A stretch of DNA of 64,000 nucleotides, taken from positions 555-64,554 of the forward strand of contig CAZODA010000012.1 in NCBI GenBank assembly GCA_964578485.1, written 5' to 3'. Numbering within the stretch: the stretch's first letter is position 1; every line of letters begins with the position of its first letter. Shown piece by piece: positions 23,284 through 46,245 of this stretch. Position numbers and translations under genes: made by a program. This DNA comes from an uncultured Alkalitalea sp. Its GTDB lineage: Bacteria; Bacteroidota; Bacteroidia; Bacteroidales; Marinilabiliaceae. A model generated the notes under the pieces. That model did no database searches. It saw only the letters and a program-made list of their open reading frames with translations, and had not been told where the DNA came from.

Positions 23284-24753
23284 ATGAAAAAAATTTTTTT
23301 GATTAGTTTGTTTATGGTATTTGTGTTGAATATTCAAGCACAAAACGTTAAATGGATAAGCAGTAAGGATAATGATTTCTGGCAGCAGAAAAGCCTTAGA
23401 CTACAAAACAAATCGGATAAGACTCCGGATATAGAAGTGGATAAGGCCTTTGAAACGCTTATATTCAAAGCATGGGGAACTTGCTTTAATGAATTGGGAT
23501 GGGATGCCTTGAACATCCTTCCTGAAGAAAAACAGGAAGAGATTGTTAAGAATCTTTTTTCACCCGAAGGAGACCTCAAATTCACTATGGGGCGTTTTTC
23601 TATGAATGCCAATGATTACTCTCGTGATTGGTATAGTTGTGATGAGGTTCCGGGGGACTTTCAATTGAAATACTTTAATATCGACCGAGATAAGACGACT
23701 TTAATACCTTTTATTAAATTCGCCCAAAAATACAACCCTGAGTTAAACTTCTGGGCCTCACCTTGGTCTCCCCCGTCATGGATGAAAGTAAATCATTATT
23801 ATTCTGTTCGCAGCAACAAGGAGCATAATCAAATGAATCCTTTATCAGATATCATATTATTTGAAGACAGTAAAGAGGAAAACAAGCAATATTTCCCACC
23901 CAGACTGGCTGTAAATGATTATTTCATACAAGATCCGCGCTATTTGACATCCTACGCCAACTACTTTTGTAAGTTTATCACGGCATATAAGGAACAAGGT
24001 ATTCCTATCAGTATGATTATGTATCAGAATGAAGCGTACAGCTATACTAATTATCCGGGTTGTGCCTGGACTCCTGAAGGAACCATACGTTTCAACGCCG
24101 AATATTTGGCTCCGGCTCTCAAAGAACAACATCCTGAAGTTAAACTATATCTGGGGACTATCAATACCAACCGTTTCGAACTCATCGATCAAATACTTTC
24201 CGACCCTCTTTTAAACAAATCAATTGAAGGCGTGGGCTTTCAATGGGAAGGAGGCCAGATTTTACCCCTAATCCGTGCCAAATATCCGCAATTCAAGTAC
24301 GTCCAAGCAGAAAGCGAGTGTGGATGGGGAAGCTTTGACTGGGGAGCTGCTGAGCATACTTTCGGCCTTATAAACCATTATCTAAGTAATGGTTGCGAGG
24401 AATATACTTTTTGGAATGCAATTTTGGCAGATGACGGTATGAGTGGTTGGGGCTGGAGACAGAATGCTCTGATCCGTGTTGACTCAAAAGCTAAAACCGC
24501 AACCTATACTCCTGAATATTATGCCGTAAAACATTATGCAAACTTCATTGTTCCGGGTTCGGAATTGATATCATGGAAACACTCAGGAAACGATAAAAAA
24601 CCGATAATGGTATATATAACTCCACAAGGAGAACATGTTATAATTGCCGGAAATTTTCAAGACCAAACACAGCAATTAAACCTTAAGATTGGGAAAAAAT
24701 TTCTGGTTGCCACTTTAGAACCTCACTCCTTAAACACCTTTATTTATAAGTAA
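23284..24753 (+). CDS. secreted glycoside hydrolase family 30 (glucosylceramidase/xylanase-like)
   Basis: 489 aa with a signal peptide. GH30 blocks are WASPWSPPSWMK and MYQNEA (acid/base Glu region). It starts 1 nt after the GH78 stop. Confidence 0.85.
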   Translation: MKKIFLISLFMVFVLNIQAQNVKWISSKDNDFWQQKSLRLQNKSDKTPDIEVDKAFETLIFKAWGTCFNELGWDALNILPEEKQEEIVKNLFSPEGDLKFTMGRFSMNANDYSRDWYSCDEVPGDFQLKYFNIDRDKTTLIPFIKFAQKYNPELNFWASPWSPPSWMKVNHYYSVRSNKEHNQMNPLSDIILFEDSKEENKQYFPPRLAVNDYFIQDPRYLTSYANYFCKFITAYKEQGIPISMIMYQNEAYSYTNYPGCAWTPEGTIRFNAEYLAPALKEQHPEVKLYLGTINTNRFELIDQILSDPLLNKSIEGVGFQWEGGQILPLIRAKYPQFKYVQAESECGWGSFDWGAAEHTFGLINHYLSNGCEEYTFWNAILADDGMSGWGWRQNALIRVDSKAKTATYTPEYYAVKHYANFIVPGSELISWKHSGNDKKPIMVYITPQGEHVIIAGNFQDQTQQLNLKIGKKFLVATLEPHSLNTFIYK

Positions 24754-25326: not shown

Positions 25327-25399
<73 letters not shown>

Positions 25400-29365: not shown

Positions 29366-29454
29366 GTTTAGCTAAAATATTGAGGAAAGGAAATTCTCTT
29401 TTTTTATATTTTCGACATTTTTTTAAAATTATAGCTATTCTTTTAAAAAAATTT

Positions 29455-29462
29455 TACCTTTG
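29455..29462 (+). promoter_or_regulatory. candidate -7 box (TAccTTTG) for the cold-shock gene
   Basis: TACCTTTG lies 31 nt upstream of the ATG. No clear -33 TTTG is present. Confidence 0.3.
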
Positions 29463-29492
29463 AATATCTATTTATTTTTTTTTTAATTTATT

Positions 29493-29684
29493 ATGAACAA
29501 AGGAATCGTAAAATTTTTTAATGACACCAAAGGTTTCGGTTTCATTAAAGATGAAGAATCAGGCGAAGAATACTTCGTACATGTCACTGGACTAATTGAC
29601 AAAATCAGAGAAAATGATGAAGTAACGTATGACCTTCAAGAAGGAAGAAAAGGTCTTAACGCTGTAAATGTTAAGCTGGCTTAG
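29493..29684 (+). CDS. cold-shock protein (CspA family)
   Basis: 63 aa with RNP1 KGFGFI and RNP2 FVH motifs. Confidence 0.93.
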   Translation: MNKGIVKFFNDTKGFGFIKDEESGEEYFVHVTGLIDKIRENDEVTYDLQEGRKGLNAVNVKLA

Positions 29685-29723
29685 TTGTAGAAAAATACAC
29701 TATAACTTCCGAAATTTGGAAAC

Positions 29724-29757
29724 GGGGCTGTCTGTAGAAGGCAGCCCCTTATTTTTT
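29724..29757 (+). terminator. rho-independent terminator after csp (sits between convergent csp and ispF)
   Basis: A 9-bp stem GGGGCTGTC / GGCAGCCCC with a 7-nt loop is followed by TTATTTTTT. Confidence 0.65.
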
Positions 29758-29777
29758 GCTAATAATTAATAAGCGTT

Positions 29778-30260
29778 CTATTTTTTCTTGTAAATAAGAG
29801 CAACCACATAGGCGCTGAGTCCTTCTTCTCTACCTACAAAGCCCATTTTTTCGGAAGTACTTGCTTTAATTGATATATCATTTTCACTTATCTGCATTTC
29901 TTCCGACAGTATTTTCTGCATTTTTGGAATAAAGGGATTAATTTTGGGACTTTCTAAACAAACAGTAGAATCAATATTGCCAATTTCATAACCTGCATTT
30001 CTAATTACAGTCATTGTATTGCGCAAAATTATTTTGCTATCTATTCCTTTCAATTCAGGGTCATTATCGGGAAAATGAACTCCTATATCTCTCTGGTTTG
30101 CAGCTCCAAGCAGTGCATCACAAATGGCATGTATAAGTACATCACCATCTGAATGACCTACCGAACCCTTAGTAAAAGGTATTTTAATTCCTCCCAACCA
30201 AAGGTCGTAGCCTTGTTCCAGTTTATGCACATCATATCCCAGTCCTATACGGAAATCCAT
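29778..30260 (-). CDS. ispF: 2-C-methyl-D-erythritol 2,4-cyclodiphosphate synthase
   Basis: 160 aa with GLGYDVHKL and GHSDGDVLIHAICDALLGA motifs. Confidence 0.93.
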   Translation of the reverse strand: MDFRIGLGYDVHKLEQGYDLWLGGIKIPFTKGSVGHSDGDVLIHAICDALLGAANQRDIGVHFPDNDPELKGIDSKIILRNTMTVIRNAGYEIGNIDSTVCLESPKINPFIPKMQKILSEEMQISENDISIKASTSEKMGFVGREEGLSAYVVALIYKKK

Positions 30261-30330
30261 TTACATAAAAATTGACAGTAACAATATATTTATCAGAAAA
30301 CAAACAATTATATACAATACTACTAATATC

Positions 30331-31497
30331 TTAAAACATATCAAGATCAAACCCTAAGGTAAAGCGGATAGTATTTGCTAATGGATTGTTTTGCACCACC
30401 GGTATCAAATAAGAAGCATCTAAGGTAAGCATATTAAATTTGAGGCCTATACCTGTAGTAAATAGTTTCCTATTTCCTTTATTTTCATGTTCATGGAAAT
30501 AACCTGCACGTATTGCAAACTGTTTATCATACCAGTATTCAAATCCAAAGGCGAAATTTATTTCCCTCAATTCTTCTTGCAATCCGCCCGGCGCATCGCT
30601 AAATGACTTGAACATAGCACTGGTAACTGACATATTCTGATATTCACGTCCATAATCAGCTGATGTTTCAGCTGTTTTACCAGGTGTAGGCACCAACAAT
30701 TTATTAAGGTCCAACAATATTGAAATACTGTTATATAGGTCTAGATCGGTAGATAAACCTACACCTAATCTTAAATTGGTAGGAATAAATTGTCTAACAT
30801 CACCTCCATCATAGGAGATTTTGTTACCAATATTTGAAATATTAATTCCTGAAGAAAAAACGGAATTATTACCTATAATGTCGGTAGGGGTATGAAAATA
30901 AAAAGCCAGATCAGCGGCAAAAGAATTTCCCGGCTCCATATCTTGGACAAAGCCTCCTCCTAAATCTGATCTTATATATCTGAAGGCGACAGCTCCTGAA
31001 AATTTTTCCGACAACATTCTGCTATATCCGATATCCAATGCAAATTCATTAGGTTTAACCTGCATTGTAACTTCATTTATATCGGGTGTTTCTCTAAAAA
31101 TAATTTCACCTAAGGTAAAATATCTAATTGAAGCACTTACTGCCTGTAATTCATCAATTTTAGTGAATCCTGTTAAATAATACATATTAATATCATTCAC
31201 CAAGTTTCTCAACCATGGGGTATATGACATAGAGGCTCCGGTTTTATTTTCAATAAAAACGAATTTTGCCGGATTCCAATGTTGAGAATTAATATCCGGT
31301 ACGGAAGCCACTCCGGCATTTCCCATTGCTCCAGCCCTTGAATCCGGTGTAATTCCAAGAAAAGGAACTGCAGTACTGATAATATTCACTTGCCCTCCCA
31401 ATTGATTGGGATTAATTTCTTTTTGGCTAAAAAGGGCCGGCAATATCATCATTAAAAAAACAAAAAAACACACTCCCCTTTTCAAGACTAACTTCAT
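30331..31497 (-). CDS. porV: type IX secretion system outer-membrane channel/shuttle protein PorV (LptO)
   Basis: 388 aa with a signal peptide. The PorV-typical N-terminal block is TAVPFLGITPDSRAGAMGNAGVASVPDINSQHWNPAKF. It has beta-barrel character and sits directly downstream of porU. Confidence 0.88.
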   Translation of the reverse strand: MKLVLKRGVCFFVFLMMILPALFSQKEINPNQLGGQVNIISTAVPFLGITPDSRAGAMGNAGVASVPDINSQHWNPAKFVFIENKTGASMSYTPWLRNLVNDINMYYLTGFTKIDELQAVSASIRYFTLGEIIFRETPDINEVTMQVKPNEFALDIGYSRMLSEKFSGAVAFRYIRSDLGGGFVQDMEPGNSFAADLAFYFHTPTDIIGNNSVFSSGINISNIGNKISYDGGDVRQFIPTNLRLGVGLSTDLDLYNSISILLDLNKLLVPTPGKTAETSADYGREYQNMSVTSAMFKSFSDAPGGLQEELREINFAFGFEYWYDKQFAIRAGYFHEHENKGNRKLFTTGIGLKFNMLTLDASYLIPVVQNNPLANTIRFTLGFDLDMF

Positions 31498-31579
31498 GTG
31501 ATTACTTTTTTTATATATAAAATTATTACTTACAAATTATACTCTACTCTTTGCTAATAACTACAAAACCTTTATTTTA

Positions 31580-34500
31580 TTATGGTCGAACAATTATTTT
31601 TTTTATTATTTGTGTTTCTTTTCCTCTATATCCCTTAATTTTAAACCTTAAGTAATATATTCCGGATTTTTTTATGCCAAGGCTCTCCAAAGATAATAGA
31701 ATTGGTTCAATAAATCCTTCTATGGCTGGAGCATCTTTTCTTTGTTGTCCGATGATATATCCCTGTGAATTAACTGCACTAACATTAATAAAGACCTCTG
31801 AATCAGGAGGGTTTGTTTTAAATGAGAATGAAATCATTTTTTGAAAATCATCAGGATTATATGAAAAATTAAAATCATTTATATCCGCTTGATTTTTGTT
31901 ATCCACGGTAAATGACAAAATACGGGAGGCGGAATTATTATAAGTATCCCACACTCTAAATTTTAATTGATGTTTACCCGGAGCAAATGTGGGCAATTGG
32001 TAAATCACTGTACCCTTCTTGTAATTATCGGGGCAGATATTAAAATAATCATTCAAAATAATTGTATTATTTATATCATCATCAATTATTATGATAATAT
32101 CATGGCCTATACCTGCGCCGAAGCTGTTTATTCCTGATTCATCGTACACCTCAGCATAAAGAATAGGATTTGTACCAACCAGTCCGTCGGCTTTAAATTC
32201 CGGGTGATCGAGATAAATGTTGATGTCGGGGCCTAAAGTATCGGCTAAGGCATCGGTATTTAATCCTCCGACAATAAAGCCATCATAAACACCTACGGCA
32301 CTATTATATTCATTTGAATATGCATAATAAGATATTCTTCCTTCACCAAAATTATAACGAATATCATAAGGCACCACAAACTCTGTTTCAAATTCACCGG
32401 ATGAGACAGTCGCCTTTCCTTTAAAAATTAAATTTGAATATTGGCTGTATTCAAAGGGATCATTTCCATGATTTCCAAGAGTTGTATGTTTTGCTTTTTT
32501 ATCATAAACTGTGATTTCTATCTCACCTTCATAATTTTCAAATTTAATTCCTTGATCATTGACAATTTCACCTGAAATATGAATTTTCGACAAAGCTTTC
32601 AAGGTATCAATCGGTTCATCTACAGCTTTGTGATTAATTTTCCTTGTTTCAACATTAAACTCAGGATGTAACATTTTAATTGCAGGATCTCCTAACAAAA
32701 CAAAATTTAGTTTATTGCTGTGATTGGCAGAATTATTCTTTGTATTCTTAATAATATCTCCTAATGAAGGCCATTCTCCTTCATTATTTTTATTAAACGC
32801 ATAATTAAAAAAGGTGCTGTTGAGGTTAAAATTCAAGCTGGAAAACACAACCCTAGTGGTAGTAAGTAAAGCTATTCCACCTCCTTTTGGATTTAAAAAC
32901 ACTTTTTCACCTGCCGACAAGATATTATGGTCGTCATAGCGTGTGAATTCACAAGTAGCAATAACAAAAACAGGTAAACGGTATAAATTATTCCATTTTT
33001 CAATTGATGCAGAGGTCACCACTCTTTCTGCCGTTAAAGCATCGGAACCTCCATGTCCAACAAAATTCAATAAAAGTGTCCCCTCCTCAATCATTTTATC
33101 AATGGCCTTTTCAGCCTCGGGGGATCGAAATCCTGTTGAAACCGGTATTATTGGATAGTTATCGAGATATAATTTATTCAAGTCAAATATGGGATGGTTT
33201 ATTTCCACTTTTTCGGCCAGAATGTCTGAATCTATCATATGTACATTATAATCATCATCATCGGCAAAAAAGCTTATTCTTTTTGTCCACTCTCCCATAT
33301 CTTGTTCTTCCAGATATATTCTTACTTTTTCTACTGCAATTTCAGCCTCTTGTGGTGTATTTACAGGGAATCTTCCTATACCGATGTTCAATTTATCATA
33401 TTTTTCCTCTCCTCCTTCATTATCATTCAAATGTCCAAAATAATCATCAGTAACATAAGAATTAGCATAATGAATAGAATTTTCAGACTGATATGTTACA
33501 ATTCCACTTTCTACTCCCGGAACTTTTGACCGGTTATCATATGAACCTCCTCCAAAAAGGAGTAAGTATTTTGGAGCTTTATAATTATCCCCATCAGCTC
33601 TTTTATACAACATTCTAACAAAGGAACGTATTGCAGTTGGATCCTGATGCCCCCATGAAAACTCATTATATATCTGCTGCACAGGAGCAACTGCTACCGA
33701 CAGCTCGCTATGTAGTTCGTGTAATTCGGCCAATTGATTGGCATAAAGTTCCAGGCCATTTGCAACAACAATAACATAATCGGCTTGTTGTATATAATGA
33801 AGGTTTTGATTTTCAATGTGTCCGACAGATTTAGGTGAAGGAAAGTCAGCTGAAGGATTAAAGGCAATATATTCCTTTATATTATCTGAAGTATCGATAA
33901 ATTCAAGCTTAGAACCAGTTAATTTTGAATTTATTTTTTTTGGACTTGTAATATCTGTTACATCCCAAATTATTGTTTCTCCTTGTGCTCCTTCAATCTT
34001 AAATTTAGAAATTTTCCCTTCGCCTATTGTTTTATGATCTCTAAACTGCAACTCATCTCCATTCATTATAGGGAAGCTTCTTGCATTAAGAGTAATAAAA
34101 TCCATGTATCCTGTTGCCTGCGCTGTCCCTTCATTAAAGACAAGTTTGATATTTAAATCTTTTTCATCAGCAATAAAATCAGCAAATGCAATATTTTCAT
34201 GGGCATAATCACTATCTGTTCGGTTCATCGTTAAAACAGCTTCTATATCGATAGTGAGAATTGCTTGTTCATTATTATTTACAAAAAACTCAAAATAATT
34301 ATTATCTGCGGACCTACCTGCAACTTTAGATAGAATTTTTATGGATTTTAAAGGGTCTCGATATTTAAAAGGGAAATAATAATTATGCTTATACTGATAT
34401 AAACTCCCGAATCTTTCACCAAACCAAGTCCTTCCTGATTTTAAAATATTTATTAACTCTTCTTCATGATATTGCAATTCATCGAAATGCGTACTCACAT

Positions 34501-34981
34501 AATTTGCTTCACCTAATTCAGCAGGTAAAATCTCAATTCCCTTTATATCTCCATTTTTTTCTGTTAAAAAATAATAAGAATAGTCAGACCAGTTATGTAG
34601 GCTATGCGTGAACAAATCTTTATTTTCATCCCATGACCATGAAACCGGTCCATGTGCATAAAAATACACAGTATTATTATAATGCCAGACTCCCACTTCC
34701 GGCAAATCATCCATTCTGGGTTCATTATTCATTCTTGGCAGCATCTGCCCTCCATACCCATAAACGGCAACTTGCGATGGTTCGTTAAAGCCCCATTCCA
34801 ATAATGTTTCATAAGTCAGCGTATGAATTCCCGTTTTTGTAACATACACTTTATGCCATTTACCTGTCGATAAAACAGAATTTATGTTATCAACATTATT
34901 AGCGGAAGATTTACGTGATGCTTCAACATAATGAAGTAAAAAACCAACAAAAAAAACAATGATAAAGAAAAGCTTTCTCAT
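31580..34981 (-). CDS. porU: type IX secretion system sortase PorU (C25-type cysteine peptidase), copy 1
   Basis: 1133 aa with a signal peptide and putative catalytic His (NFVGHGGSD) and Cys (FVIATCEFTRYDD). The C-terminal beta-rich CTD-like end is ...YYLRFKIKGYRGKETQIIKKIIVRP. It lies between porV and gldJ. Confidence 0.85.
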   Translation of the reverse strand: MRKLFFIIVFFVGFLLHYVEASRKSSANNVDNINSVLSTGKWHKVYVTKTGIHTLTYETLLEWGFNEPSQVAVYGYGGQMLPRMNNEPRMDDLPEVGVWHYNNTVYFYAHGPVSWSWDENKDLFTHSLHNWSDYSYYFLTEKNGDIKGIEILPAELGEANYVSTHFDELQYHEEELINILKSGRTWFGERFGSLYQYKHNYYFPFKYRDPLKSIKILSKVAGRSADNNYFEFFVNNNEQAILTIDIEAVLTMNRTDSDYAHENIAFADFIADEKDLNIKLVFNEGTAQATGYMDFITLNARSFPIMNGDELQFRDHKTIGEGKISKFKIEGAQGETIIWDVTDITSPKKINSKLTGSKLEFIDTSDNIKEYIAFNPSADFPSPKSVGHIENQNLHYIQQADYVIVVANGLELYANQLAELHELHSELSVAVAPVQQIYNEFSWGHQDPTAIRSFVRMLYKRADGDNYKAPKYLLLFGGGSYDNRSKVPGVESGIVTYQSENSIHYANSYVTDDYFGHLNDNEGGEEKYDKLNIGIGRFPVNTPQEAEIAVEKVRIYLEEQDMGEWTKRISFFADDDDYNVHMIDSDILAEKVEINHPIFDLNKLYLDNYPIIPVSTGFRSPEAEKAIDKMIEEGTLLLNFVGHGGSDALTAERVVTSASIEKWNNLYRLPVFVIATCEFTRYDDHNILSAGEKVFLNPKGGGIALLTTTRVVFSSLNFNLNSTFFNYAFNKNNEGEWPSLGDIIKNTKNNSANHSNKLNFVLLGDPAIKMLHPEFNVETRKINHKAVDEPIDTLKALSKIHISGEIVNDQGIKFENYEGEIEITVYDKKAKHTTLGNHGNDPFEYSQYSNLIFKGKATVSSGEFETEFVVPYDIRYNFGEGRISYYAYSNEYNSAVGVYDGFIVGGLNTDALADTLGPDINIYLDHPEFKADGLVGTNPILYAEVYDESGINSFGAGIGHDIIIIIDDDINNTIILNDYFNICPDNYKKGTVIYQLPTFAPGKHQLKFRVWDTYNNSASRILSFTVDNKNQADINDFNFSYNPDDFQKMISFSFKTNPPDSEVFINVSAVNSQGYIIGQQRKDAPAIEGFIEPILLSLESLGIKKSGIYYLRFKIKGYRGKETQIIKKIIVRP

Positions 34982-35058
34982 CTATTTTTATGCTATATAT
35001 ATATCAAAATTTCTAATTATTATCGGATTTTAAATTGCTTTATTTGTCGGATAAAATT

Positions 35059-38000
35059 TTATGGTCTTAGCATTATTTTTTCAACAATTTGTGCTTTTTT
35101 CCCTTCCGGAGTTCGAATGCTAAATCTGACAAAATAAAGTCCCGGAGTTTTAGCTCCCATATTCATGAGTGACAGTCCTGAATCTGCTACATAATTACCT
35201 CGGGCAACGGTTTCAATTCTATGCTTTCCAACAACTAAACCATCAATTGTATATAAGTCGATATCTATTTCAAGTGCAGAATTAGGCTCACCCGTTTCAA
35301 ATGCAAAGCCACCATTGGCATTAAATGAAATTGGATTTGGATACCAAATAAAATTCCATATTTTCAAATCCTTTCCTTTTCCAACAAAAAACTCAAGCTC
35401 TTCTGTTGTAGAATTATTATAGGTATCCCATACACGAATACTAAGATTATTCAATCCTTCAGGGACTTCAGGTAACTGATATTCAATCACTCCTTCTTTA
35501 TAGGTATCAGATTTTGCCTTAAAATAATCATTTAAGATAAGAGCTTGATTGTAATTTTCATTAAGGATTAAAATTATGTCATGCCCAATACCTGTCCCTG
35601 AAGTATTTATTCCGGAATCATCGAACAATTCTGCATATAATATGGGGGTTGAACCTGTAACATCACCATTTTTAAACTCCGGATGATTAAGGTATAATTT
35701 AACTTCCGGGCCCTTGTCATCAGGATTAAAGTCTGTATTAAAACCTCCGATTTTAAGTTTCTCGAAGGCACCAAATGCATCTCCATAATCATTGGATTGT
35801 GCATAATAACTAATTTTTCCATCCCCATAATTGTATCTGATATCAAATGGGATAATAAACTCCATTTCGAATCTCCCTTCACGGACGCTTGCCTTACCTT
35901 TAAACAAAACACTAAAAAAGTTTTTAAATTGAAAGGGTTCTATGCCTTCATGTCCGAGGGTAGCAACTTCCTGCTGCTTATCATAAACAGTAATCTCCAT
36001 TTCCCCATTATAGTCGTCAATTCTCAAGCCTTTACCGTCAACCACCTCACCTTCAATGCTTACTGAAGACAATGCCTTTATAGTATCGCCAAATTCTTCA
36101 ATATTTTGATGATTTATTTTTGTTGTTTTAACATTATGTGAAGGATAGATTAGTTTAATAGCAGGGTCACCAAGCAGAACAAAGTTTAATTTATTAACAC
36201 CGGATGCCAATCCATTTTTTGTATATCTTGTAATATCTCCTAAAGCGGGTCGTTTACCATTTTCATCATAATTAAACACGAAATCAAAAAACCTATTATT
36301 AAGAATAAAATTTTGATTGGCAAAAACAACTCTTGTGGTGCTCAATAAAGCGATAGCTCCACCTCTTGTATTAAAAAACACCAGTTCACCTGCCGATGGT
36401 TCTCCATCATGGTCGTCGAAGCGGCTAAAAGTACAAGTTGCTGTAACAAAAAGAGGTAAGCGTCTAATATTATTTAGTTCTTTAACACTAGTTCTATTTA
36501 CTACTTCCTTTTTTGTAAGTGCATGTGATCCTCCATGTCCGACAAAATTAAATAAAACTGTTCCTTCTGAAATTGCTCTGTTAACTGCATCTTCTGCTTC
36601 AGGCGATCTATTTCCTGTAGATATTGTTGTTTCGGGGTAACTATCCAAATAAATTTTTTTAATATCATATTCGGGATAATTTTCGGCAACTTTTTTTGAT
36701 AACATGTCTGCCTGACTCATATGCAAATGGTTATCTCCGTCTTCAGCAAAAAAAGTAATATTCTTGCGCCATGCTCCTACATCTTGTTCTTCAAAATATT
36801 TTCTCACCTTTTCCACTGCATTTTTTGCTTGTGTGATGTTTCGTACAGGGAATCTGCCTATTCCAAGGTATAGAATATCATTCACATCATCTCCACCTTG
36901 TTCACAATCTAAAAACCCAAAATAGTCATCTGTTACATAAGTATTTGTGTGATGAGTTGAGTTCTCCGACTGGTAAGTTACAATACCATTTTCTACACCC
37001 GGTATTTTTGATTTGTTGTTATATGATCCACTCCCAAAAAGTAAAAGATAGCGGGGCTTTTTATCATTATCATCAGCTGCTCTAAGATATAACATCCTCA
37101 TAAATAAACGAATAGCAGTAGGATCCTGATGTCCCCATGAAAACTCATTATAAATTTTGCTTACAGGTACCACAAGTGGTGTTAAATTATTGTAAGCTTG
37201 GTGTAATTCGGCAAGTTCTTCTGCATAAGGTTGAAAATCATCAGCTACAACAATTACATAATCAGCCTGCTGATGAGAATGAAGATTTTGGTTTTCTATT
37301 TTCCCTATCCTTTGTGGCACGGGAAATTCGCCCCCCGGATTAAATGCTATAAATTCGTATGCCTTATCAGTTTTCATTTTAAATTCCACCCTTCCCGAAA
37401 CAAATGAAGAAGGGATTAAAACAGGGCTTTCAATATGAGTTATATCCCATACTACGGTTTCGGATTTACCATTTTCGATGCTGAACAATGCTAATTCACC
37501 TTTTTCATATGATTCACGATCTCTGAAACTTAACTGATGAGCATTTAATATTAATTTGCTTCTGGCATTAATGGTGATATAATCCATGTATCCCGTTGCA
37601 ATAGCAGTTGTAGGATTATATCTGACCTTTAAATTTAAATCTTTCTCATCAGAAATCACATTAGTTATAAAAGAGTTTTCAACAGCAAAATTTCCACTTT
37701 CACGAGACATGTCCTGAACCGGTAATATCGACATAGAATAGAAAGCACTTTTCGAATCATTTAAAAAAAAGCTAAAAGAACTAGAGCTTCCCGAACGTGC
37801 TGCCATACTTGAAGTAATTCGGACAGCTTGGCTTACATCACGATTATTAAGGGTAAATTTAAAGCTATGCTCAAGGCGACCGGAAGAAGCATCAAAGCGT
37901 TCTCCAAACCATTTTCGTCCTGATTTCATAATATTAATCAACTCAGCCTCATGATAATGCCTTTCGTCATAATGTGTAACATTTACAGTTGGGATTCCAT

Positions 38001-38583
38001 CTAAAGGAGGCATTTGAATTGGCTCTTTAATTTTATCATTTTTTTCTGTCAGGAAATAAAATGAAAAACTTGACCAATAATGAAGTTTTTGAAGGAACAT
38101 TTTTTTTTCATCATCCCAATACCATGAAGCCGGGCCATTAGCATAAAAATATATAGCATTATTATAATGCCATATTCCTACTTCAGGCAAGTCGTCGGGT
38201 CGTTCTATATTATTTTGTGAGGGTAGCATCTGCCCTCCGTAGCCATATACAGCTACCTTTGAAGGCTGGCTGAATCCCCACGATTGAAGCATTGAATACG
38301 GTATTCTGTGAATTCCACTTTCATTCACAGATATTTTCTGCCAGTTTCCTGAACCTAAAACTGAAGAAGTAGAAAATCCACAGCCATCATTTTGTGATTT
38401 TAATTCTGCAAGCGACAAATCAAGGTCATCAGTCTTTATAGAAGTCGCGTTATGCCCTATGATTTGATTTTCTGTAATTAATTTATCTTTTTGTTGTTTT
38501 TCAGCATAATTAATGGCTCCATTTACAATAACTGGAGACAGAAAAGAGAAAATACAGAAAAAATAAAAAATCCTTAGCTTCAC
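35059..38583 (-). CDS. porU: type IX secretion system sortase PorU paralogue, copy 2
   Basis: 1174 aa, alignable by eye with copy 1 along its whole length. It keeps NFVGHGGSH and FVTATCTFSRFDD, and the CTD-like end ...LYFVRFSIRTPEGKKAQIVEKIMLRP. Confidence 0.8.
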   Translation of the reverse strand: MKLRIFYFFCIFSFLSPVIVNGAINYAEKQQKDKLITENQIIGHNATSIKTDDLDLSLAELKSQNDGCGFSTSSVLGSGNWQKISVNESGIHRIPYSMLQSWGFSQPSKVAVYGYGGQMLPSQNNIERPDDLPEVGIWHYNNAIYFYANGPASWYWDDEKKMFLQKLHYWSSFSFYFLTEKNDKIKEPIQMPPLDGIPTVNVTHYDERHYHEAELINIMKSGRKWFGERFDASSGRLEHSFKFTLNNRDVSQAVRITSSMAARSGSSSSFSFFLNDSKSAFYSMSILPVQDMSRESGNFAVENSFITNVISDEKDLNLKVRYNPTTAIATGYMDYITINARSKLILNAHQLSFRDRESYEKGELALFSIENGKSETVVWDITHIESPVLIPSSFVSGRVEFKMKTDKAYEFIAFNPGGEFPVPQRIGKIENQNLHSHQQADYVIVVADDFQPYAEELAELHQAYNNLTPLVVPVSKIYNEFSWGHQDPTAIRLFMRMLYLRAADDNDKKPRYLLLFGSGSYNNKSKIPGVENGIVTYQSENSTHHTNTYVTDDYFGFLDCEQGGDDVNDILYLGIGRFPVRNITQAKNAVEKVRKYFEEQDVGAWRKNITFFAEDGDNHLHMSQADMLSKKVAENYPEYDIKKIYLDSYPETTISTGNRSPEAEDAVNRAISEGTVLFNFVGHGGSHALTKKEVVNRTSVKELNNIRRLPLFVTATCTFSRFDDHDGEPSAGELVFFNTRGGAIALLSTTRVVFANQNFILNNRFFDFVFNYDENGKRPALGDITRYTKNGLASGVNKLNFVLLGDPAIKLIYPSHNVKTTKINHQNIEEFGDTIKALSSVSIEGEVVDGKGLRIDDYNGEMEITVYDKQQEVATLGHEGIEPFQFKNFFSVLFKGKASVREGRFEMEFIIPFDIRYNYGDGKISYYAQSNDYGDAFGAFEKLKIGGFNTDFNPDDKGPEVKLYLNHPEFKNGDVTGSTPILYAELFDDSGINTSGTGIGHDIILILNENYNQALILNDYFKAKSDTYKEGVIEYQLPEVPEGLNNLSIRVWDTYNNSTTEELEFFVGKGKDLKIWNFIWYPNPISFNANGGFAFETGEPNSALEIDIDLYTIDGLVVGKHRIETVARGNYVADSGLSLMNMGAKTPGLYFVRFSIRTPEGKKAQIVEKIMLRP

Positions 38584-39049
38584 TTATTAACAATTTTAGA
38601 AATACCTTATTCACAAATAACGCAAAAATATTAATCTTGTTTCTTATAGTTGGTCAAAAAATATATTTTTCATATCAAAGTGTAGCTTTTTCGGCAGTTG
38701 ATCAACTATGAATTTTATTCAACACCATCAAGATTAAAAAAAATGCTTATCTTCTCATCTCCGGAAAGCATTAAGGATTAAATTATCAGCGATAAATTTA
38801 TTATTACTTATTTTGCTTTTTGATATATTAGATATAATAATATACCAAAACCAACAGTTTAGCGTTAATATTGTTTACAAGATAGCAGTATTGTGCTTTA
38901 GTTAAAAAAATATATTAAGAAGGCATTTTTAATATAACCTTTTTCTATTTTTACAGTATAAAGCAAAAGAAGAAAGAAGTATCATAAGCAAAAGTTTATG
39001 ATAAATATATGTTTAATATTATGCAACTTAGAATTCAAGAACATAAGCT

Positions 39050-40537
39050 ATGAAATTTAGAGCAAGCTCATTACTAATTATTTTTGCCTCTGCATTGGTT
39101 ATTACTTCATGTTCCAGAGGTCGAAACGTTTCTTCCACTACCGGTTGGGCATATAATGATCCCGCCTATGGAGGTTTCGAGTATAAATCCGGATTTGAAC
39201 AAGCAACCGGTCCCGGACTTGTTTTTATTGAAGGCGGTACTTTTATTATGGGTCAGGTAGATGAAGATGTAATGCGTGATTGGAACAATGTACCACGTCG
39301 TGTTACTGTACCATCTTTTTATATGGATGAAACCGAAGTAAGAAATGTTGATTACAGGGAGTATCTATATTGGATTAGAAGGGTTTTTACCGACTATCCT
39401 GAAGTTTATCGCAACGCTCTTCCCGACACTTTAGTTTGGCGAAGGCCTCTTGCTTATAATGAGCCCCTGGTTGAAAATTATTTCCGCCATCCTGCTTATA
39501 GTGACTACCCGGTAGTAGGCGTCAATTGGCTGCAGGCAAATAATTACTGTTCGTGGCGTACCGATCGTGTGAACGAGGTAATTTTGATCAAACGAGGAGT
39601 TCTCGAAATGGACGTTAATCAACAAAACGAAAACAATTTTAATACCGAGGCTTATTTATTAGGTCAATATGATGGTATTGAAGGCAGACGTCCAATGCCG
39701 GATCTTGATCCTAACAGAGACACACGCCGTGTGAGAGCCGACGACGGAATACTTTTACCCCGTTATCGTTTACCAACAGAAGCTGAGTGGGAATATGCCG
39801 CTGTTGGTCTTATTGGTAACTCTTATGAAGAACGTCTTACCCATCGTAGGATTTATCCTTGGGATGGCCATATTGTAAGGAATCCAAGTAGAAAAGAACG
39901 CGGTCAGATGATGGCCAACTTTGTACGCGGGCGTGGTGACTATATGGGAATGGCAGGTTCTTTAAATGATGGAGGTGATGTTACTGTACACGTAAGATCC
40001 TACTATCCTAATGATTACGGCTTATATTGCATGGCGGGTAATGTTAATGAGTGGGTTGCTGATGTTTATCGTCCTCTTTCACACCAGGATGTTGATGAGT
40101 TCAGTCCTTTTAGGGGCAACATTTTCGAAACTAAGGTCTTAGATGAAGAGGGTATGGTGGTTGACAAGGACGAATTCGGACGTATCCGCTACCGTGAAGA
40201 GACAGATGAGGATATATTGGAGAGACCTAATTATCGTCACCCCGACAACAGGAATTTCCGTGATGGTGATGCTATTTCAAATTTATCCTCTGCAGAAGGA
40301 TGGGTTGATTCCGATTATGAAACAACAAATATGTATTCTGCCGCTCCTACCGATGAGCTAAGTAGTGGTATATCCGACCGTTCACGTGTTTATAAGGGTG
40401 GGGGCTGGCGCGACAGGGCCTATTGGCTAAGTCCGGGTACTCGTAGATTCTTAGACGAACGTGATGCCAGGGATGACCTTGGATTCCGTTGTGCAATGAC
40501 AAGAGTGGGTTCTCCCTCTTCAAATAAAAAAAGATAG
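39050..40537 (+). CDS. gldJ: gliding-motility/T9SS lipoprotein GldJ (FGE-sulfatase fold, GldK/PorK paralogue)
   Basis: 495 aa with a lipoprotein signal ...LVITSCS and the N-terminal STTGWAYNDPAYGGFEY. FGE-like blocks are RLPTEAEWEYAA and GFRCAM. It is divergent from porU and upstream of murF. As I recall, gldJ also neighbours porU, porV and murF in Flavobacterium johnsoniae. No gldLMN follows, which argues against GldK. Confidence 0.8.
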   Translation: MKFRASSLLIIFASALVITSCSRGRNVSSTTGWAYNDPAYGGFEYKSGFEQATGPGLVFIEGGTFIMGQVDEDVMRDWNNVPRRVTVPSFYMDETEVRNVDYREYLYWIRRVFTDYPEVYRNALPDTLVWRRPLAYNEPLVENYFRHPAYSDYPVVGVNWLQANNYCSWRTDRVNEVILIKRGVLEMDVNQQNENNFNTEAYLLGQYDGIEGRRPMPDLDPNRDTRRVRADDGILLPRYRLPTEAEWEYAAVGLIGNSYEERLTHRRIYPWDGHIVRNPSRKERGQMMANFVRGRGDYMGMAGSLNDGGDVTVHVRSYYPNDYGLYCMAGNVNEWVADVYRPLSHQDVDEFSPFRGNIFETKVLDEEGMVVDKDEFGRIRYREETDEDILERPNYRHPDNRNFRDGDAISNLSSAEGWVDSDYETTNMYSAAPTDELSSGISDRSRVYKGGGWRDRAYWLSPGTRRFLDERDARDDLGFRCAMTRVGSPSSNKKR

Positions 40538-40556
40538 AATTAACTATATAAAGAAA

Positions 40557-40586
40557 AGGCTGATATAATCTCAGCCTTTTTTTTTG
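40557..40586 (+). terminator. rho-independent terminator after gldJ
   Basis: AGGCTGA / TCAGCCT is a 7-bp stem with a 7-nt loop, followed by 9 T. Confidence 0.7.
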
Positions 40587-40602
40587 CCTAAATTCTAAAC
40601 AT

Positions 40603-41913
40603 TTGATAATCATGAATATTCATGAAATATATGAATTCTATCTAAAGTCGGGACAAGTAACTATCGACAGCCGAAAATGTCTTCCCGGAACAATATTTTT
40701 TGCACTCAAGGGTGATAAATTTGATGGTAATAATTTTGCATCCGACGCTCTCAAAAATGGATGTAGTTATGCTATAGTTGATAATCCTGAGCTTAAGAAT
40801 AAAGCCGATCATATTTGGGTACCGGATGCTCTAAAAACATTACAACAATTAGCCACCTTACATCGTCTTAAAAGTGAGCTTAAAGTAATAGCCATTACAG
40901 GTTCGAATGGCAAAACCACTACTAAAGAACTTATTTCGGTAATACTTACTGAAAAATACAGGGTTTGGAGTACTCAGGGAAATTTAAATAATCATATTGG
41001 TGTTCCTCTTACTCTTTTGTCTATTCCTCCGGGCACTCAAATAGCTGTTGTAGAAATGGGAGCCAACCATAAGGGTGAAATTTCAGATTTATGTGAAATA
41101 GCTCAGCCTGATATGGGTTTAATTACAAATATAGGAAAGGCACATCTCGAAGGTTTTGGATCTCTTGAAGGTGTAAAGCAGGCAAAAAAGGAGCTATATA
41201 GCTACTTGATTAAACACGGTGGTGAAATATTTATAAATGATGACAATCCCATATTAAAAGATTTGTTGGGAGATCATCAATCAGGTGTTTACCGTTATGG
41301 TAGCGATAAAAGTTGTGAAGTTTGTGGCAGCTATCTCAAATCAGATCCTTTAATGAGTTTTCAATGGAAATCTCCTTTCTCGGAATGGACAAATGTTCAA
41401 ACTCAATTAACAGGAACTTATAATTTCGAAAATGCCTTGGCTGCTGTAATAGTTGGGGTTCACTTTGCTGTTCCACAGAACTTAATTAATTCTGCACTAA
41501 CACGATATAAACCTCTTAACTATCGTTCTCAACTGCTTCAAACAAAAACCAATAAAATTGTTCTGGATGCCTATAATGCCAATCCATCGAGTATGCAAGT
41601 TGCTCTAAAGCATTTCGACACTATGAAGGCTTCAAATAAAATAGTAATCCTTGGAGAAATGAAAGAAGTTGGTAAAGAAAGTCATGCAGAACACAAAAAG
41701 ATAATTGCACAGCTACAAACTATGAGTATTAATAAATGTATCCTCATAGGTAATGAATTTAAAAACACTTTTCCTCACGACGAAAAATTCCTTTGGTTCC
41801 TGAATTCCGAAGACTTATTATCTTTTATTAATCGTCAGCCCCTATCCCATTCACTTATTCTGATAAAAGGAAGCAGGATAAACAAGCTTGAAAAGTTAAG
41901 CGAATTTTTATAG
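40603..41913 (+). CDS. murF: UDP-N-acetylmuramoyl-tripeptide--D-alanyl-D-alanine ligase
   Basis: 436 aa with the Mur ligase P-loop ITGSNGKTTTKE and DAYNANPSSM. An alternative ATG lies at 40612. Confidence 0.9.
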   Translation: MIIMNIHEIYEFYLKSGQVTIDSRKCLPGTIFFALKGDKFDGNNFASDALKNGCSYAIVDNPELKNKADHIWVPDALKTLQQLATLHRLKSELKVIAITGSNGKTTTKELISVILTEKYRVWSTQGNLNNHIGVPLTLLSIPPGTQIAVVEMGANHKGEISDLCEIAQPDMGLITNIGKAHLEGFGSLEGVKQAKKELYSYLIKHGGEIFINDDNPILKDLLGDHQSGVYRYGSDKSCEVCGSYLKSDPLMSFQWKSPFSEWTNVQTQLTGTYNFENALAAVIVGVHFAVPQNLINSALTRYKPLNYRSQLLQTKTNKIVLDAYNANPSSMQVALKHFDTMKASNKIVILGEMKEVGKESHAEHKKIIAQLQTMSINKCILIGNEFKNTFPHDEKFLWFLNSEDLLSFINRQPLSHSLILIKGSRINKLEKLSEFL

Positions 41914-41933: not shown

Positions 41934-42974
41934 TTACAAATGATCAGGATGATTTATTTGGGAGAAATAACGTTTTTTACGAACAAAAAAATCAAAAACT
42001 ACAGAACCTTTATATATTTCAGGATGATTTGTATGAGAAACTTTTGCAGCTAAAAGTTTCCTTTGACCATAAAAATGTCTAAACTTTTTTATAAAGCTCC
42101 AATGAGCTTTATATACGGCAAGAAAATAATTCCATTCCTTTCTAAATAAAAAATGAATACTTGCCAAATAATCCAAACACATTCTAAATATCAATAAACA
42201 ATAAACTCCCGATCCCATTCGATTTTTAATAATAAGAAAAAGATTATTCCTAAAATTTAAATACGTTTTTGAAGGATTATTGTAGTTTAAAGTTCCACCC
42301 CCAAGATGGAGCACTTCGCTATCAGGGACATACATCACCTTATACCCCATATTTTTAACTCTCCAACACCAATCTATTTCCTCCATATGTGCGAAAAAGA
42401 GAGGATCGAAGCCCCCGGATTTGAGGAATAAATTTGTTTTGACCATTAAAGCCGACCCACTGCCCCAAAAAACAGAATCGGCTTGATTATATTGATTTTC
42501 ATCTTTTTCAATGACATTAAACATTCTTCCTCTACAAAAGGTGTAGCCAAATATATCTATAAAGCCTCCTGCAGCACCGGCATACTCAAAATAATCAGGA
42601 CGATTTGCATCTTTAATCTTAGGCACAGCTGCAGCAACAGAGCGGCTGTTTTTCATTGTCTTCACCATTGGTAGTAACCATCCGGGTTGAGGAGCCACAT
42701 CCGAATTCAACATCACTACATATTCTGTATCAAGAAATGTAAGTGCTTTATTATATCCTCCGGCAAATCCCAGATTTTCATCAAAGCGTATTACATTAAT
42801 TTTAGGATAATTTTCTTTGAGCCATTCTACTGAATCATCAGTAGAACCATTATCTGCAACCACGATTTTAACACCTTCAATATTTGAATTTTTTACAACT
42901 TCAGGTAAAAACTTTTCAAGTAAGTTTCGTGTATTCCAGTTTAATATTACAATTGATACAGAGAATCGAAGCAT
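41934..42974 (-). CDS. family 2 glycosyltransferase
   Basis: 346 aa with VSIVILNWNTRNLL, VVADNGSTDDS and NSDV motifs, and C-terminal hydrophobic segments. Confidence 0.85.
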   Translation of the reverse strand: MLRFSVSIVILNWNTRNLLEKFLPEVVKNSNIEGVKIVVADNGSTDDSVEWLKENYPKINVIRFDENLGFAGGYNKALTFLDTEYVVMLNSDVAPQPGWLLPMVKTMKNSRSVAAAVPKIKDANRPDYFEYAGAAGGFIDIFGYTFCRGRMFNVIEKDENQYNQADSVFWGSGSALMVKTNLFLKSGGFDPLFFAHMEEIDWCWRVKNMGYKVMYVPDSEVLHLGGGTLNYNNPSKTYLNFRNNLFLIIKNRMGSGVYCLLIFRMCLDYLASIHFLFRKEWNYFLAVYKAHWSFIKKFRHFYGQRKLLAAKVSHTNHPEIYKGSVVFDFFVRKKRYFSQINHPDHL

Positions 42975-42976
42975 TA

Positions 42977-43867
42977 TTAAGTTTCTTTATACAAATGCTG
43001 ATGTTTCCATCGGCGATGAGACCATAGCCAGTATTCAGGCTTTTTCCTAATTTGTCTTTCAAGCATTCTTACATGCCATTCGGTAATTTCAAACTCCTCT
43101 GCTGTCTTCACATCTCCGGGAAAAGGAATGAAAGATAATTGATATTGACCTCTTTTAATTTTCTCCATATCCCAGAATAATACTACAGCATCAGTTAAAC
43201 GAGCCATTTTCTCAGGCCCTAAGATTATTGGAGTATTTTGACCTAAGAAAATGGTCCAATAATCAAGTTCGTTTTTTCCCGGACTTTGATCACAAATAAG
43301 CCCTAATACAAAGCGTATATTCTTACGTTTATGTTGAATAACTTCCCGAGCGGTAAGTTTCTTCTCTACATTAATTGTTCCAAAACGATTTCGCAGACGC
43401 AACATATAACGATCGAAGTAAGGATTTTTTAAAGGTCGATATACAGAAATACCGGCTACCTGAAAAGACAAATTAATTGATGGCACCCATTCCCAGTTTC
43501 CATAATGCCCAAGTACAGCTATTATATCTTTTCCTTCATTAAGATATTCCTCAATAATTTCAGGATTAACAGCCCTCAATCTGAACTTCATTTCTTCAAG
43601 AGGAATATTTTCAATAACGATGGTTTCTACTATCAAATCACAAAAATGCCTATAAAATCGCAAACGTATCTTACGAAGATCTTTAGAACTTTTGTCGGGA
43701 AATGCCCTGGACAGATTATCGTTAATAATCTTTTTACGATATCCTACTATTAATATTATCAAGAATAGAAAATCTGATAGCCTGTAAAGAACAAACATAG
43801 GCAACCAGCTTAACACCCAAAGCAATGGATAAACAATATAAAATCCGACTGCTTGAAGTACTTTCAT
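42977..43867 (-). CDS. lipid A biosynthesis (Kdo2-lipid IVA) late acyltransferase / lysophospholipid acyltransferase family
   Basis: 296 aa with an N-terminal TM anchor and an HtrB/LpxL-type active-site block LGHYGNWEW. Confidence 0.8.
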   Translation of the reverse strand: MKVLQAVGFYIVYPLLWVLSWLPMFVLYRLSDFLFLIILIVGYRKKIINDNLSRAFPDKSSKDLRKIRLRFYRHFCDLIVETIVIENIPLEEMKFRLRAVNPEIIEEYLNEGKDIIAVLGHYGNWEWVPSINLSFQVAGISVYRPLKNPYFDRYMLRLRNRFGTINVEKKLTAREVIQHKRKNIRFVLGLICDQSPGKNELDYWTIFLGQNTPIILGPEKMARLTDAVVLFWDMEKIKRGQYQLSFIPFPGDVKTAEEFEITEWHVRMLERQIRKKPEYWLWSHRRWKHQHLYKET

Positions 43868-43868
43868 A

Positions 43869-44669
43869 TTATTTTTGCTTTAAGTAAAAAGAGACTTTTT
43901 TGAAAAATTCATTAAAAACCAAGGTGTTAGATGCAATTATTTCTCGTTTTTCAAAATAATTTTCTTCACCTGAAAAATCAGAAACTTTACCTCCTGCTTG
44001 TTTCACCAAAAATAGTCCGGCAGCTATATCCCAATCATTCAAATTATATTCATAAAAAGCATCAAAACGTCCACAGGCTACATAGGCTAAATCAACAGCT
44101 GCAGATCCCATTCGGCGCATGCCATGACTGTTTCGCATAAAGTAATGCAATGATTCGATAAAACTGTCAATTAAGTCAAAGTTAGTGTACGGAAAACCTG
44201 TGGCAATAAGGCTGTCTGAAATATTTTCATTGCTTGACACATGAATTTCTTTTTCATTCATTAAAGCAGGGCCATCTTTCCATGAATAGAAGCATTCGTC
44301 AAGTCCAATTTCATAAATTACTCCTAACACAATTTCATCGTACTCCTTCAAAGCTATACTTATACTAAAGGGATATAATCCATGAATAAAATTTGTAGTA
44401 CCATCAATGGGATCAATTACCCAATTAAATCTTTCACTTTTTTTGGAAATTGTTTCTTCTTCAGTAATAAATCCGGCTTCGGGCAAAACTGCTGAAAGGT
44501 CGGCAACTATTCTTTTTTCAGCCTCTTGATCGTACTTCGTTACAAAGTCATTTTTGCCCTTTTCATGTATTTCAGGCTCGTGATTTAATCTGGCTTCTCG
44601 AATAAAAGCACCTGTTGTTCGTGCAGATATTACAGCATGTAAACACAATTCTCTGTAATTTATTTTCAT
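43869..44669 (-). CDS. inositol monophosphatase family protein (SuhB-like)
   Basis: 266 aa with the metal-binding motifs WVIDPIDGTTNF and WDIAAG. Confidence 0.88.
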   Translation of the reverse strand: MKINYRELCLHAVISARTTGAFIREARLNHEPEIHEKGKNDFVTKYDQEAEKRIVADLSAVLPEAGFITEEETISKKSERFNWVIDPIDGTTNFIHGLYPFSISIALKEYDEIVLGVIYEIGLDECFYSWKDGPALMNEKEIHVSSNENISDSLIATGFPYTNFDLIDSFIESLHYFMRNSHGMRRMGSAAVDLAYVACGRFDAFYEYNLNDWDIAAGLFLVKQAGGKVSDFSGEENYFEKREIIASNTLVFNEFFKKVSFYLKQK

Positions 44670-46170: not shown

Positions 46171-46245
46171 GGGCGCTTAGCTCAGCTGGTTCAGAGCACC
46201 TGGTTTACACCCAGGGGGTCAGCGGTTCGAATCCGTTAGCGCCCA
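46171..46245 (+). tRNA. tRNA-Val (anticodon TAC)
   Basis: Read: GGGCGCT TA GCTC AGCTGGTTCA GAGC A CCTGG TTTACAC CCAGG GGGTC AGCGG TTCGAAT CCGTT AGCGCCC A. The cloverleaf is canonical. Confidence 0.93.

Follow-up and report, generated by a model that had tools for sequence, protein, structure and literature searches.

Within a type IX secretion system (T9SS), the last step belongs to PorU, which removes the sorting domain of the cargo, the latter then being anchored to lipopolysaccharide (LPS) or released. PorU is treated as a single component, PGN_0022 or Fjoh_1556 (PMC9127263), how it comes to release one cargo or attach it is described as unresolved (PMC10202324), and mechanistic work has so far dealt with single-copy systems. 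The stretch of DNA considered here, 64,000 nucleotides from an uncultured Alkalitalea sp. of the Marinilabiliaceae, a bacterium of marine-sediment type (assembly GCA_964578485.1, contig CAZODA010000012.1, positions 555 to 64,554; hereafter the window), differs from Porphyromonas gingivalis, which has one porU, in that two diverged porU genes, both predicted to encode catalytically intact enzymes, coexist under selection in tandem upstream of one porV. The locus raises the question of whether both copies are working sortases, how old the pair is, and whether the two enzymes still do the same job. It can be stated with high confidence that they are two intact, selected PorU paralogues that stem from an old duplication within the Marinilabiliaceae. 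That the two PorUs have become specialised is proposed only tentatively, and the statement as a whole, an old retained duplication together with an inferred specialisation, is favoured on balance but by no means firmly.

Two PorU sortases under purifying selection

Two co-oriented open reading frames (ORFs) of 1133 and 1174 amino acids (aa) had been reported in a first-pass annotation made from the DNA letters alone, and both are present on the minus strand with exactly the coordinates given at the time. Each gene encodes a signal peptide and a C25 catalytic domain; the C-terminal domain (CTD) is divergent in the porV-proximal and faster-evolving copy, porU-A (31580..34981, ATG start, 1133 aa), and canonical type A in the gldJ-proximal, more conservative copy, porU-B (35059..38583, GTG start, 1174 aa).

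The identification of both genes as PorU sortases, already made at first pass, stands on several kinds of comparison. To the curated PorU model NF033707 (cutoff 420), PorU-A scores 1149.1 bits over model positions 1-1094 of 1095 and PorU-B 1173.9 bits; the Pfam C25 domain PF01364 is complete in both (320 bits in PorU-A, about 332-333 bits in PorU-B); and in a phmmer search residues 34-1131 of PorU-A match P. gingivalis PorU 6ZA2 with E = 4.2e-150, the sole PDB sequence match. The AlphaFold model of PorU-A (pLDDT 83.5, pTM 0.77) has 6za2_B and 6za2_A as its best PDB matches (E = 1e-82, TM 0.51-0.53, ~1160 columns), a fold comparison that covered PorU-A only, to which PorU-B is 52% identical without large gaps. 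Although identity to P. gingivalis PorU is only ~26-27%, the likeness comprises full-length homology, the His/Cys dyad, a porU that adjoins porV, and a layout of N-terminal beta domains, C25 catalytic domain, Ig-like domains and C-terminal beta-sandwich. The gingipains RgpB and Kgp rank after 6za2 for the PorU-A model and match its catalytic part only (E = 1e-15 to 1e-19, TMq 0.25); with matches so much weaker than that to 6za2, an identity as gingipain-type secreted C25 protease is ruled out. Membership of the distant PorU2 family (NCBIfam NF052324) is likewise ruled out for both copies, because their scores of 135.5 bits (PorU-A) and 136.2 bits (PorU-B) compare with a cutoff of 450.

Both proteins had been said to retain a signal peptide, and inspection of charge and hydropathy at the N-termini agrees: the putative Sec signal peptide of PorU-A, MRKLFFIIVFFVGFLLHYVEA/S, has a 12-aa window mean of 3.2 on the Kyte-Doolittle scale, and the N-terminus of PorU-B, (M)KLRIFYFFCIFSFLSPVIVNG/A, Sec-like by inspection, has one of 2.4. 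The C25-type residues that had been pointed out, a His within FVGHGG (at residue 640 of PorU-A and 680 of PorU-B) and a Cys within ATCEF (at 675 of PorU-A) or ATCTF (at 715 of PorU-B), were mapped on the 6za2 dyad, with the codons translated, and neither copy is without its Cys or His. In PorU-A, where GHGG lies at residue 642, His643 (codon 33053..33055, minus strand) corresponds to His657 of P. gingivalis PorU and Cys677 (32951..32953, minus strand) to Cys690, the catalytic cysteine of that enzyme (PMC5121618). For PorU-B, alignment and translation check place the catalytic His at residue 683 (36535..36537, minus strand) and the catalytic Cys at residue 717 (36433..36435, minus strand). Both proteins terminate in RP. 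To judge by their sequences, PorU-A and PorU-B would both be CTD-cleaving sortases that transfer cargo to anionic LPS.

The integrity of the two genes was considered at the level of the family and at that of the nearest orthologues. Among the 171 columns that are >=90% conserved in an alignment of 116 PorU sequences, PorU-A keeps the conserved residue in 159 and PorU-B in 160, with a range of 154-171 and a median of 166 in other PorUs. The ratio of nonsynonymous to synonymous substitution (dN/dS) was taken against the orthologous locus L085 (GCA_040436515.1; dS ~0.3-0.4) and covers, in the case of PorU-B, the C-terminal 403 codons, the remainder lying beyond the L085 contig end. It amounts to 0.138 for the whole of PorU-A and 0.064 for PorU-B, next to 0.047 for porV, 0.063 for ispF and 0.039 for fadD; by domain, it is 0.09 in the catalytic domain of PorU-A, 0.21 in its N-terminal domains and 0.22 in its CTD, and 0.057 in the CTD of PorU-B. 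Both porU genes are under purifying selection, and PorU-A evolves at about twice the rate of PorU-B.

If one copy were a decaying or inactive remnant, that is, a pseudo-enzyme, the doubled rate of PorU-A would be understandable, as would the score of its CTD below the type-A model and the absence from both copies of an N-terminal domain of ~90-125 aa that their closest relatives possess. That domain, however, is also missing from P. gingivalis PorU and from many single-copy PorUs; moreover, the ORFs are uninterrupted and the dyads intact in both copies, the retention of conserved residues lies within the range of single-copy PorUs, and the dN/dS values are low, above all in the catalytic domain of PorU-A. 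A pseudo-enzyme is highly improbable and is essentially refuted by the selection data, and the earlier impression that neither gene is a decaying copy holds (159 and 160 of 171 positions; dN/dS 0.14 and 0.06).

Age, origin and recurrence of the tandem pair

The two proteins, which had been aligned by eye along their whole length, align in BLASTP over 1102 residues with 569/1102 identities (52%), 71% positives, 2 gaps and E = 0, and the ten sequence blocks listed as shared are all found in both, at corresponding positions. At the DNA level, porU-A and porU-B are 60% identical in the codon alignment and 70-72% in the best ungapped stretches. One pair of segments, 33639-33670 and 37121-37152, is indeed identical at 31 of 32 nt, as had been noticed, but the recent duplication or gene conversion suggested on that account is rejected. 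The block encodes the invariant motif YNEFSWGHQD, and there is no sign of gene conversion because this motif and codon bias explain it: over 561 conserved degenerate codons identical codons make up a fraction of 0.53, where the codon usage of the two genes alone predicts 0.49, and no significant local cluster of identical codons between porU-A and porU-B was detected (permutation P = 0.68). Synonymous sites are saturated between the copies, and the duplication is therefore old; its age is probably about that of the split from the genus Natronoflexus.

With copies only 60% identical in DNA, duplication by assembly is impossible. A falsely duplicated region, the artefact considered at first pass, has nothing to recommend it beyond the general risk of metagenome assemblies, and it is excluded for all practical purposes by this divergence, by the independent assembly of the same tandem in SRR8925751, SRR8925752 and ERZ15185968, and by its presence in the diverged relative GCA_040436515.1 (locus L085, dS ~0.35).

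As to where the second copy came from, the nearest named relatives of the window organism in the Marinilabiliaceae are Natronoflexus and Geofilum. The closest relatives, Natronoflexus pectinivorans and the genomes carrying P0007 and P0017, have a single porU, and their loci otherwise correspond to that of the window gene for gene. Apart from the one in L085 (89%), a set of 5.8 billion clustered proteins contains no A-type orthologue with an identity above 53%. In a neighbour-joining (NJ) tree built from 1080 columns with 200 bootstraps, both copies lie inside a 35-leaf Marinilabiliaceae clade with 100% bootstrap. PorU-B is 57% identical to the PorU of Natronoflexus pectinivorans and PorU-A 53%, compared with 52% between the two copies and, for other proteins of the window against Natronoflexus, 71% in PorV, 85% in GldJ and 82% in FadD. 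The most economical account is an in-place tandem duplication in the window lineage at about the time of the split from Natronoflexus, followed by faster evolution of PorU-A.

The topology of the same NJ tree tells against this account: PorU-A branches basally to the Natronoflexus/Geofilum subclade, and 20% of bootstraps recover A+B as sisters, 52% B+Natronoflexus. The pair may therefore also descend from an older duplication with later losses, or have gained a copy from a close relative. Four-point quartet bootstraps with P0007 or P0017 as third taxon make A and B sisters at 96-100% for 7/8 outgroups, the distant outgroup P0065 leaving the same quartets unresolved (39% and 55%). Tested against Natronoflexus, the copies are sisters at 80-91% with near outgroups, the result becoming ambiguous with more distant ones (38-55%) and reversed with P0065 (2%). 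The weaker grouping with distant outgroups is what a long-branch effect would be expected to give, and since the near-outgroup quartets favour A+B, the basal position of PorU-A in the NJ tree is not accepted as proof of an older duplication; against Natronoflexus the quartets give no single answer.

Horizontal acquisition of the second copy from another Bacteroidia lineage, or an ancient duplication lost in all sampled relatives, would agree with the placement of PorU-A outside B+Natronoflexus and with its being slightly nearer to Natronoflexus PorU (53%) than to PorU-B (52%). Such an origin is nevertheless very unlikely, given that PorU-A lies inside the same fully supported Marinilabiliaceae clade, that quartets with near outgroups favour A and B as sisters, that GC content at third codon positions is equal in both copies (0.243 and 0.244), that no donor-like sequence above 53% identity exists among the 5.8 billion proteins, and that a perfect, in-register tandem is the product of unequal recombination.

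The arrangement recurs elsewhere. Among GTDB species, each represented by a single genome, the 80 loci most similar to PorU-A (L005-L084) were compared, and ten of them hold a tandem porU at the same site (L023, L054, L055, L056, L060, L066, L068, L074, L077 and L084); as the 80 loci are the best-scoring relatives and not a random sample, the corresponding figure of 12% is indicative only. In L077 the contig stops within the second copy; the other nine pairs are complete, with intact ORFs of 1137-1283 aa and spacers of 0-130 bp, and GHGG...ATCEF is retained in every copy. Eight of the complete pairs and L077 belong to one clade of uncultured Bacteroidales/Lentimicrobiaceae-like metagenome-assembled genomes (MAGs; 21 leaves, 86% bootstrap), and L023_b groups with the single-copy L047 (77%) in a third clade. 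The pairs, that of the window included, are spread over three separate clades; they require no fewer than three independent duplications, and one ancient duplication common to all tandem genomes is rejected. Inside the large tandem clade, the duplication is older than at least the L060/L066 split (a-a and b-b pairings 100%), and a deep split between upstream and downstream copies has weak support (~20%). As a tendency, the downstream copy in this clade has diverged more than the upstream one.

Like the window pair, these pairs (the nine of the large clade and L023) are made up of two co-oriented, intact porU genes that occupy the same site and keep the dyads; unlike it, they are independent duplications in other clades in which both copies keep the long N-terminus (~1260-1280 aa). 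None of their carriers is a cultured organism. The homologues retrieved with one downstream copy as query are uncultured MAG proteins throughout, all annotated plain 'PorU', and since annotation pipelines label both copies in this way, porU copy number is invisible unless sought. Four further PorU pairs (P0126/P0137, P0124/P0139, P0132/P0174 and P0135/P0184) come with longest contigs of equal size within the pair (51989, 26514, 66335 and 102182 bp, respectively), and these are probably further tandem or same-contig pairs beyond the ten counted.

In the literature on PorU paralogues, duplication or copies, no paper describing two PorU genes was found, and the words paralog and duplicat* do not occur in a phylogenetic study of T9SS components (PMC7323717). 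The initial remark that such a pair had not, to the annotator's awareness, been described is in line with this, but the arrangement is not unique, as 10/80 species representatives have it. The tandem two-sortase arrangement appears to be undescribed; taken singly, both genes are ordinary PorU-family members, and the novelty would lie in the two-sortase form of the otherwise known T9SS attachment module. Precedents for paralogy among T9SS and gliding components are GldK/GldJ, GldN/GldO, PorV/PorQ and the NCBIfam families 'PorU2' and 'PorV2', in which parts duplicate and then specialise or stay partly redundant; for instance, GldN and GldO are adjacent and partially redundant in Flavobacterium johnsoniae (PMC9127263; PMC10202324). 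Unlike the window pair, no such precedent consists of two canonical PorU enzymes.

Divergence of the copies and a possible division of labour

When compared with their single-copy relatives, both window genes are short. Loci of the Natronoflexus/Geofilum type have one porU of ~1255-1261 aa with an extra N-terminal domain (1261 aa in Natronoflexus, 1255 aa in P0007, 1257 aa in P0017), and it is this domain of ~90-125 aa that is missing from both copies (34880-34981; 38380-38583), PorU-B holding ~40 additional N-terminal residues and PorU-A beginning almost at the conserved core. PorU lengths form two classes, ~1125-1160 aa and ~1250-1290 aa, and the N-terminal domain has been lost repeatedly.

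The CTDs differ more sharply between the copies. In P. gingivalis, the CTD of PorU is uncleaved and stays bound to PorV (PMC10202324). That of PorU-B (residues 1071-1174; 35062..35373, minus strand) is a canonical type-A T9SS sorting domain, the last 107 residues scoring 23.5 bits with TIGR04183 (cutoff 23, E = 4e-5) and 38.1 bits with the section of the PorU model that covers the CTD; the last 106 residues of PorU-A score 18.8 bits with that section, and its C-terminus matches neither TIGR04183 nor PF18962. In the CTD of PorU-A (residues 1031-1133; 31583..31891, minus strand), the otherwise invariant YPNP motif has become SYNP, with a P replaced by Y1041 at a 100%-conserved column, and the VAxGN segment is altered as well, changes that are common to the L085 orthologue. 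The C-terminal half is retained (GIYYLRF...KKIIVRP), the alignment to the PorU-B CTD is gap-free, and the domain is still predicted by AlphaFold to have seven strands (pLDDT 72-86), which fits the 3+4 beta-sandwich given for CTDs (PMC11285876). The CTD-like C-terminus attributed to both proteins at first pass is therefore only partly borne out: TIGR04183 recognises it in PorU-B, and in PorU-A it shows in the predicted structure but in no match to TIGR04183 or PF18962.

PorU-B, for its part, departs from the family beside the catalytic cysteine. Thr718 (codon 36430-36432, directly after that of the catalytic Cys) occupies a position that holds Glu in 99% of 114 other PorUs, all copies in the nine further tandem pairs among them; P. 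gingivalis has Asp there, and Thr is unique to PorU-B. Lys692, Glu614 and Leu703 are further departures of PorU-B at near-invariant sites near the active site.

A course of events that would accommodate these differences begins with an ancestor whose single porU was presumably duplicated in place at about the time of the split from Natronoflexus. Purifying selection has since maintained both products, which are full-length and, by prediction, secreted and competent C25 cysteine peptidases or sortases; PorU-B has remained near the ancestral sequence with its canonical type-A CTD, the part that holds PorU on PorV in P. gingivalis, and PorU-A has had the first half of its CTD remodelled under strong constraint on the catalytic domain. 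Both enzymes would be exported by the T9SS and work on the cell surface together with the one PorV encoded beside them, and the ancestral job, removal of the cargo CTD followed by LPS transfer or release, may have been split or specialised between them, either through different docking (the PorU-A CTD) or through a different active-site environment (Thr718 of PorU-B). A partition of cargo classes, the possibility raised at first pass, would be one form of such a split. Specialisation is tentatively preferred to pure redundancy because of the long retention, the twofold rate asymmetry, the remodelled docking domain of PorU-A and Thr718 of PorU-B, and the independent duplications in at least two other Bacteroidia lineages, with active sites intact, argue for a recurrent selective benefit of a second PorU. 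A more specific version, in which the PorUs are not interchangeable (one might anchor cargo to LPS while docked on PorV by its canonical CTD, and the other might dock in another way and serve other cargo or release), and in which this has evolved repeatedly, is to be regarded as doubtful.

Several observations weigh against any division of labour. In the large tandem clade, a single alignment column cleanly separates upstream from downstream copies, and the identity of copies within a genome (0.42) is not below that among downstream copies across genomes (0.40); with only that one column, there is no conserved two-class signature in the clade, and the idea of a shared upstream/downstream signature is unsupported. 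F. johnsoniae secretes several cargoes without PorU (PMC9127263), and the benefit of having PorU thus differs from one lineage to another. Finally, a dosage benefit alone would also fit purifying selection. On such a view the second gene would be a redundant or dosage duplicate, with the same job and the same cargo, more sortase being useful and the asymmetry a matter of neutral drift. The presence of the dyad in both proteins, their nearly equal counts of family-conserved residues and the lack of a copy-specific signature in the other tandem clade all suit this view, as does the organisation of both genes in one co-oriented block with porV: in neither the 77-nt spacer between porU-B and porU-A (34982..35058, minus strand) nor the 82-nt spacer between porU-A and porV (31498..31579, minus strand) was a terminator-like site found on the coding strand, and porU-A and porU-B are probably co-expressed. 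A sigma-70 promoter scan was uninformative (48 sites against 43 expected), Bacteroidia promoters being outside its coverage. Pure redundancy, however, rarely survives intact through ~48% amino-acid divergence, and it does not sit well with the twofold rate difference, with CTD changes of PorU-A at otherwise invariant positions that are fixed in both A orthologues, or with the unique change of PorU-B beside the catalytic Cys; it is accordingly considered unlikely.

A regulatory or heteromeric pair has also to be weighed, in which PorU-A and PorU-B would form a heterodimer, one of them mainly regulating or partnering the other. The P. gingivalis structure 6ZA2 is described as 'dimeric latent PorU', one monomer blocking the active site of the other, PorU activity is restrained in the dimer with inhibition on dimerisation through a beta-hairpin (PMC10202324), and the genes are adjacent and probably co-expressed. 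In a pure regulator, though, the intact dyad and the constraint found in both catalytic domains (0.09 in that of PorU-A) would be needless, which makes this reading quite improbable.

The interest of the preferred reading, that of two specialised sortases, lies in where the copies have diverged, namely at the PorV-docking domain and beside the catalytic cysteine. If they are specialised, their comparison would show which parts of PorU set the choice of cargo or acceptor, and a division of labour would offer a natural genetic handle on the decision of PorU to attach or release. If they are redundant, the pair would be one more duplicated T9SS component, like GldN/GldO.

Surroundings of the porU locus

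The gene order in the window is gldJ, then, diverging from it, porU-B, porU-A, porV and ispF, so that porV lies on one side of the pair and gldJ on the other, as first annotated. porV (30331..31497, minus strand, 388 aa; NF033710 500 bits against a cutoff of 250; PF19572) follows directly downstream of the porU pair, 82 nt 3' of porU-A on the same strand; the genomic tie to porV is thus present, and this is the only PorV-family gene in the window. ispF (29778..30260, minus strand; TIGR00151 200 bits) is the final gene of the co-oriented porU-porV-ispF block. On the other side, gldJ (39050..40537, plus strand; TIGR03524 477 bits against a cutoff of 458) is divergent, with murF beyond it. The order and orientation of the whole block, murF-gldJ diverging from porU-porV-ispF (29778-41913 in the window), are kept in most of the 80 loci, ispF, a gene of isoprenoid synthesis, coming almost always next after porV, and the same layout is found at the single-copy loci of Natronoflexus pectinivorans, Geofilum and F. 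johnsoniae (Fjoh_1556/1555). No T9SS cargo, porZ, porQ or second porV was found in the window, the other genes of which are housekeeping genes.

Departures from this layout occur in L060 (13397-18729), L066 and L068, where the tandem pair is followed by neither porV nor ispF but by two unrelated ORFs (298 and 186 aa), and where no PorV match at E <= 1e-3 was obtained within the loci; the single-porU loci L030, L040 and L071 are likewise without an adjoining porV. In the closest relatives, a small thioredoxin gene stands directly after ispF (L086:11530-11847, L087:11549-11887, L088:11723-12064). No thioredoxin gene is called at ~29400-29778 in the window lineage (L001, L085), and a cold-shock-domain gene comes directly after ispF there.

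Envelope and LPS-related genes flank the porU locus and are syntenic in relatives (41934-44669 and 2140-3249, both minus strand): a GT2 glycosyltransferase, a lipid A acyltransferase and an inositol monophosphatase-family gene lie beside murF, and an LptF/LptG permease farther off. These genes are possibly relevant to the attachment of PorU cargo to LPS. The window also contains two tRNA genes (25327-25399, minus strand, and 46171-46245, plus strand; Rfam RF00005, 72 and 69 bits) and no other Rfam family at gathering score. Finally, two plus-strand ORFs of 557 aa (18076-19749) and 151 aa (17661-18116) match no Pfam family at E <= 1e-5; directly downstream of them come a GH78 alpha-L-rhamnosidase (19803-23282) and then a GH30-like glycosidase (23284-24753), and the two ORFs may be uncharacterised members of a glycan-utilisation cluster.

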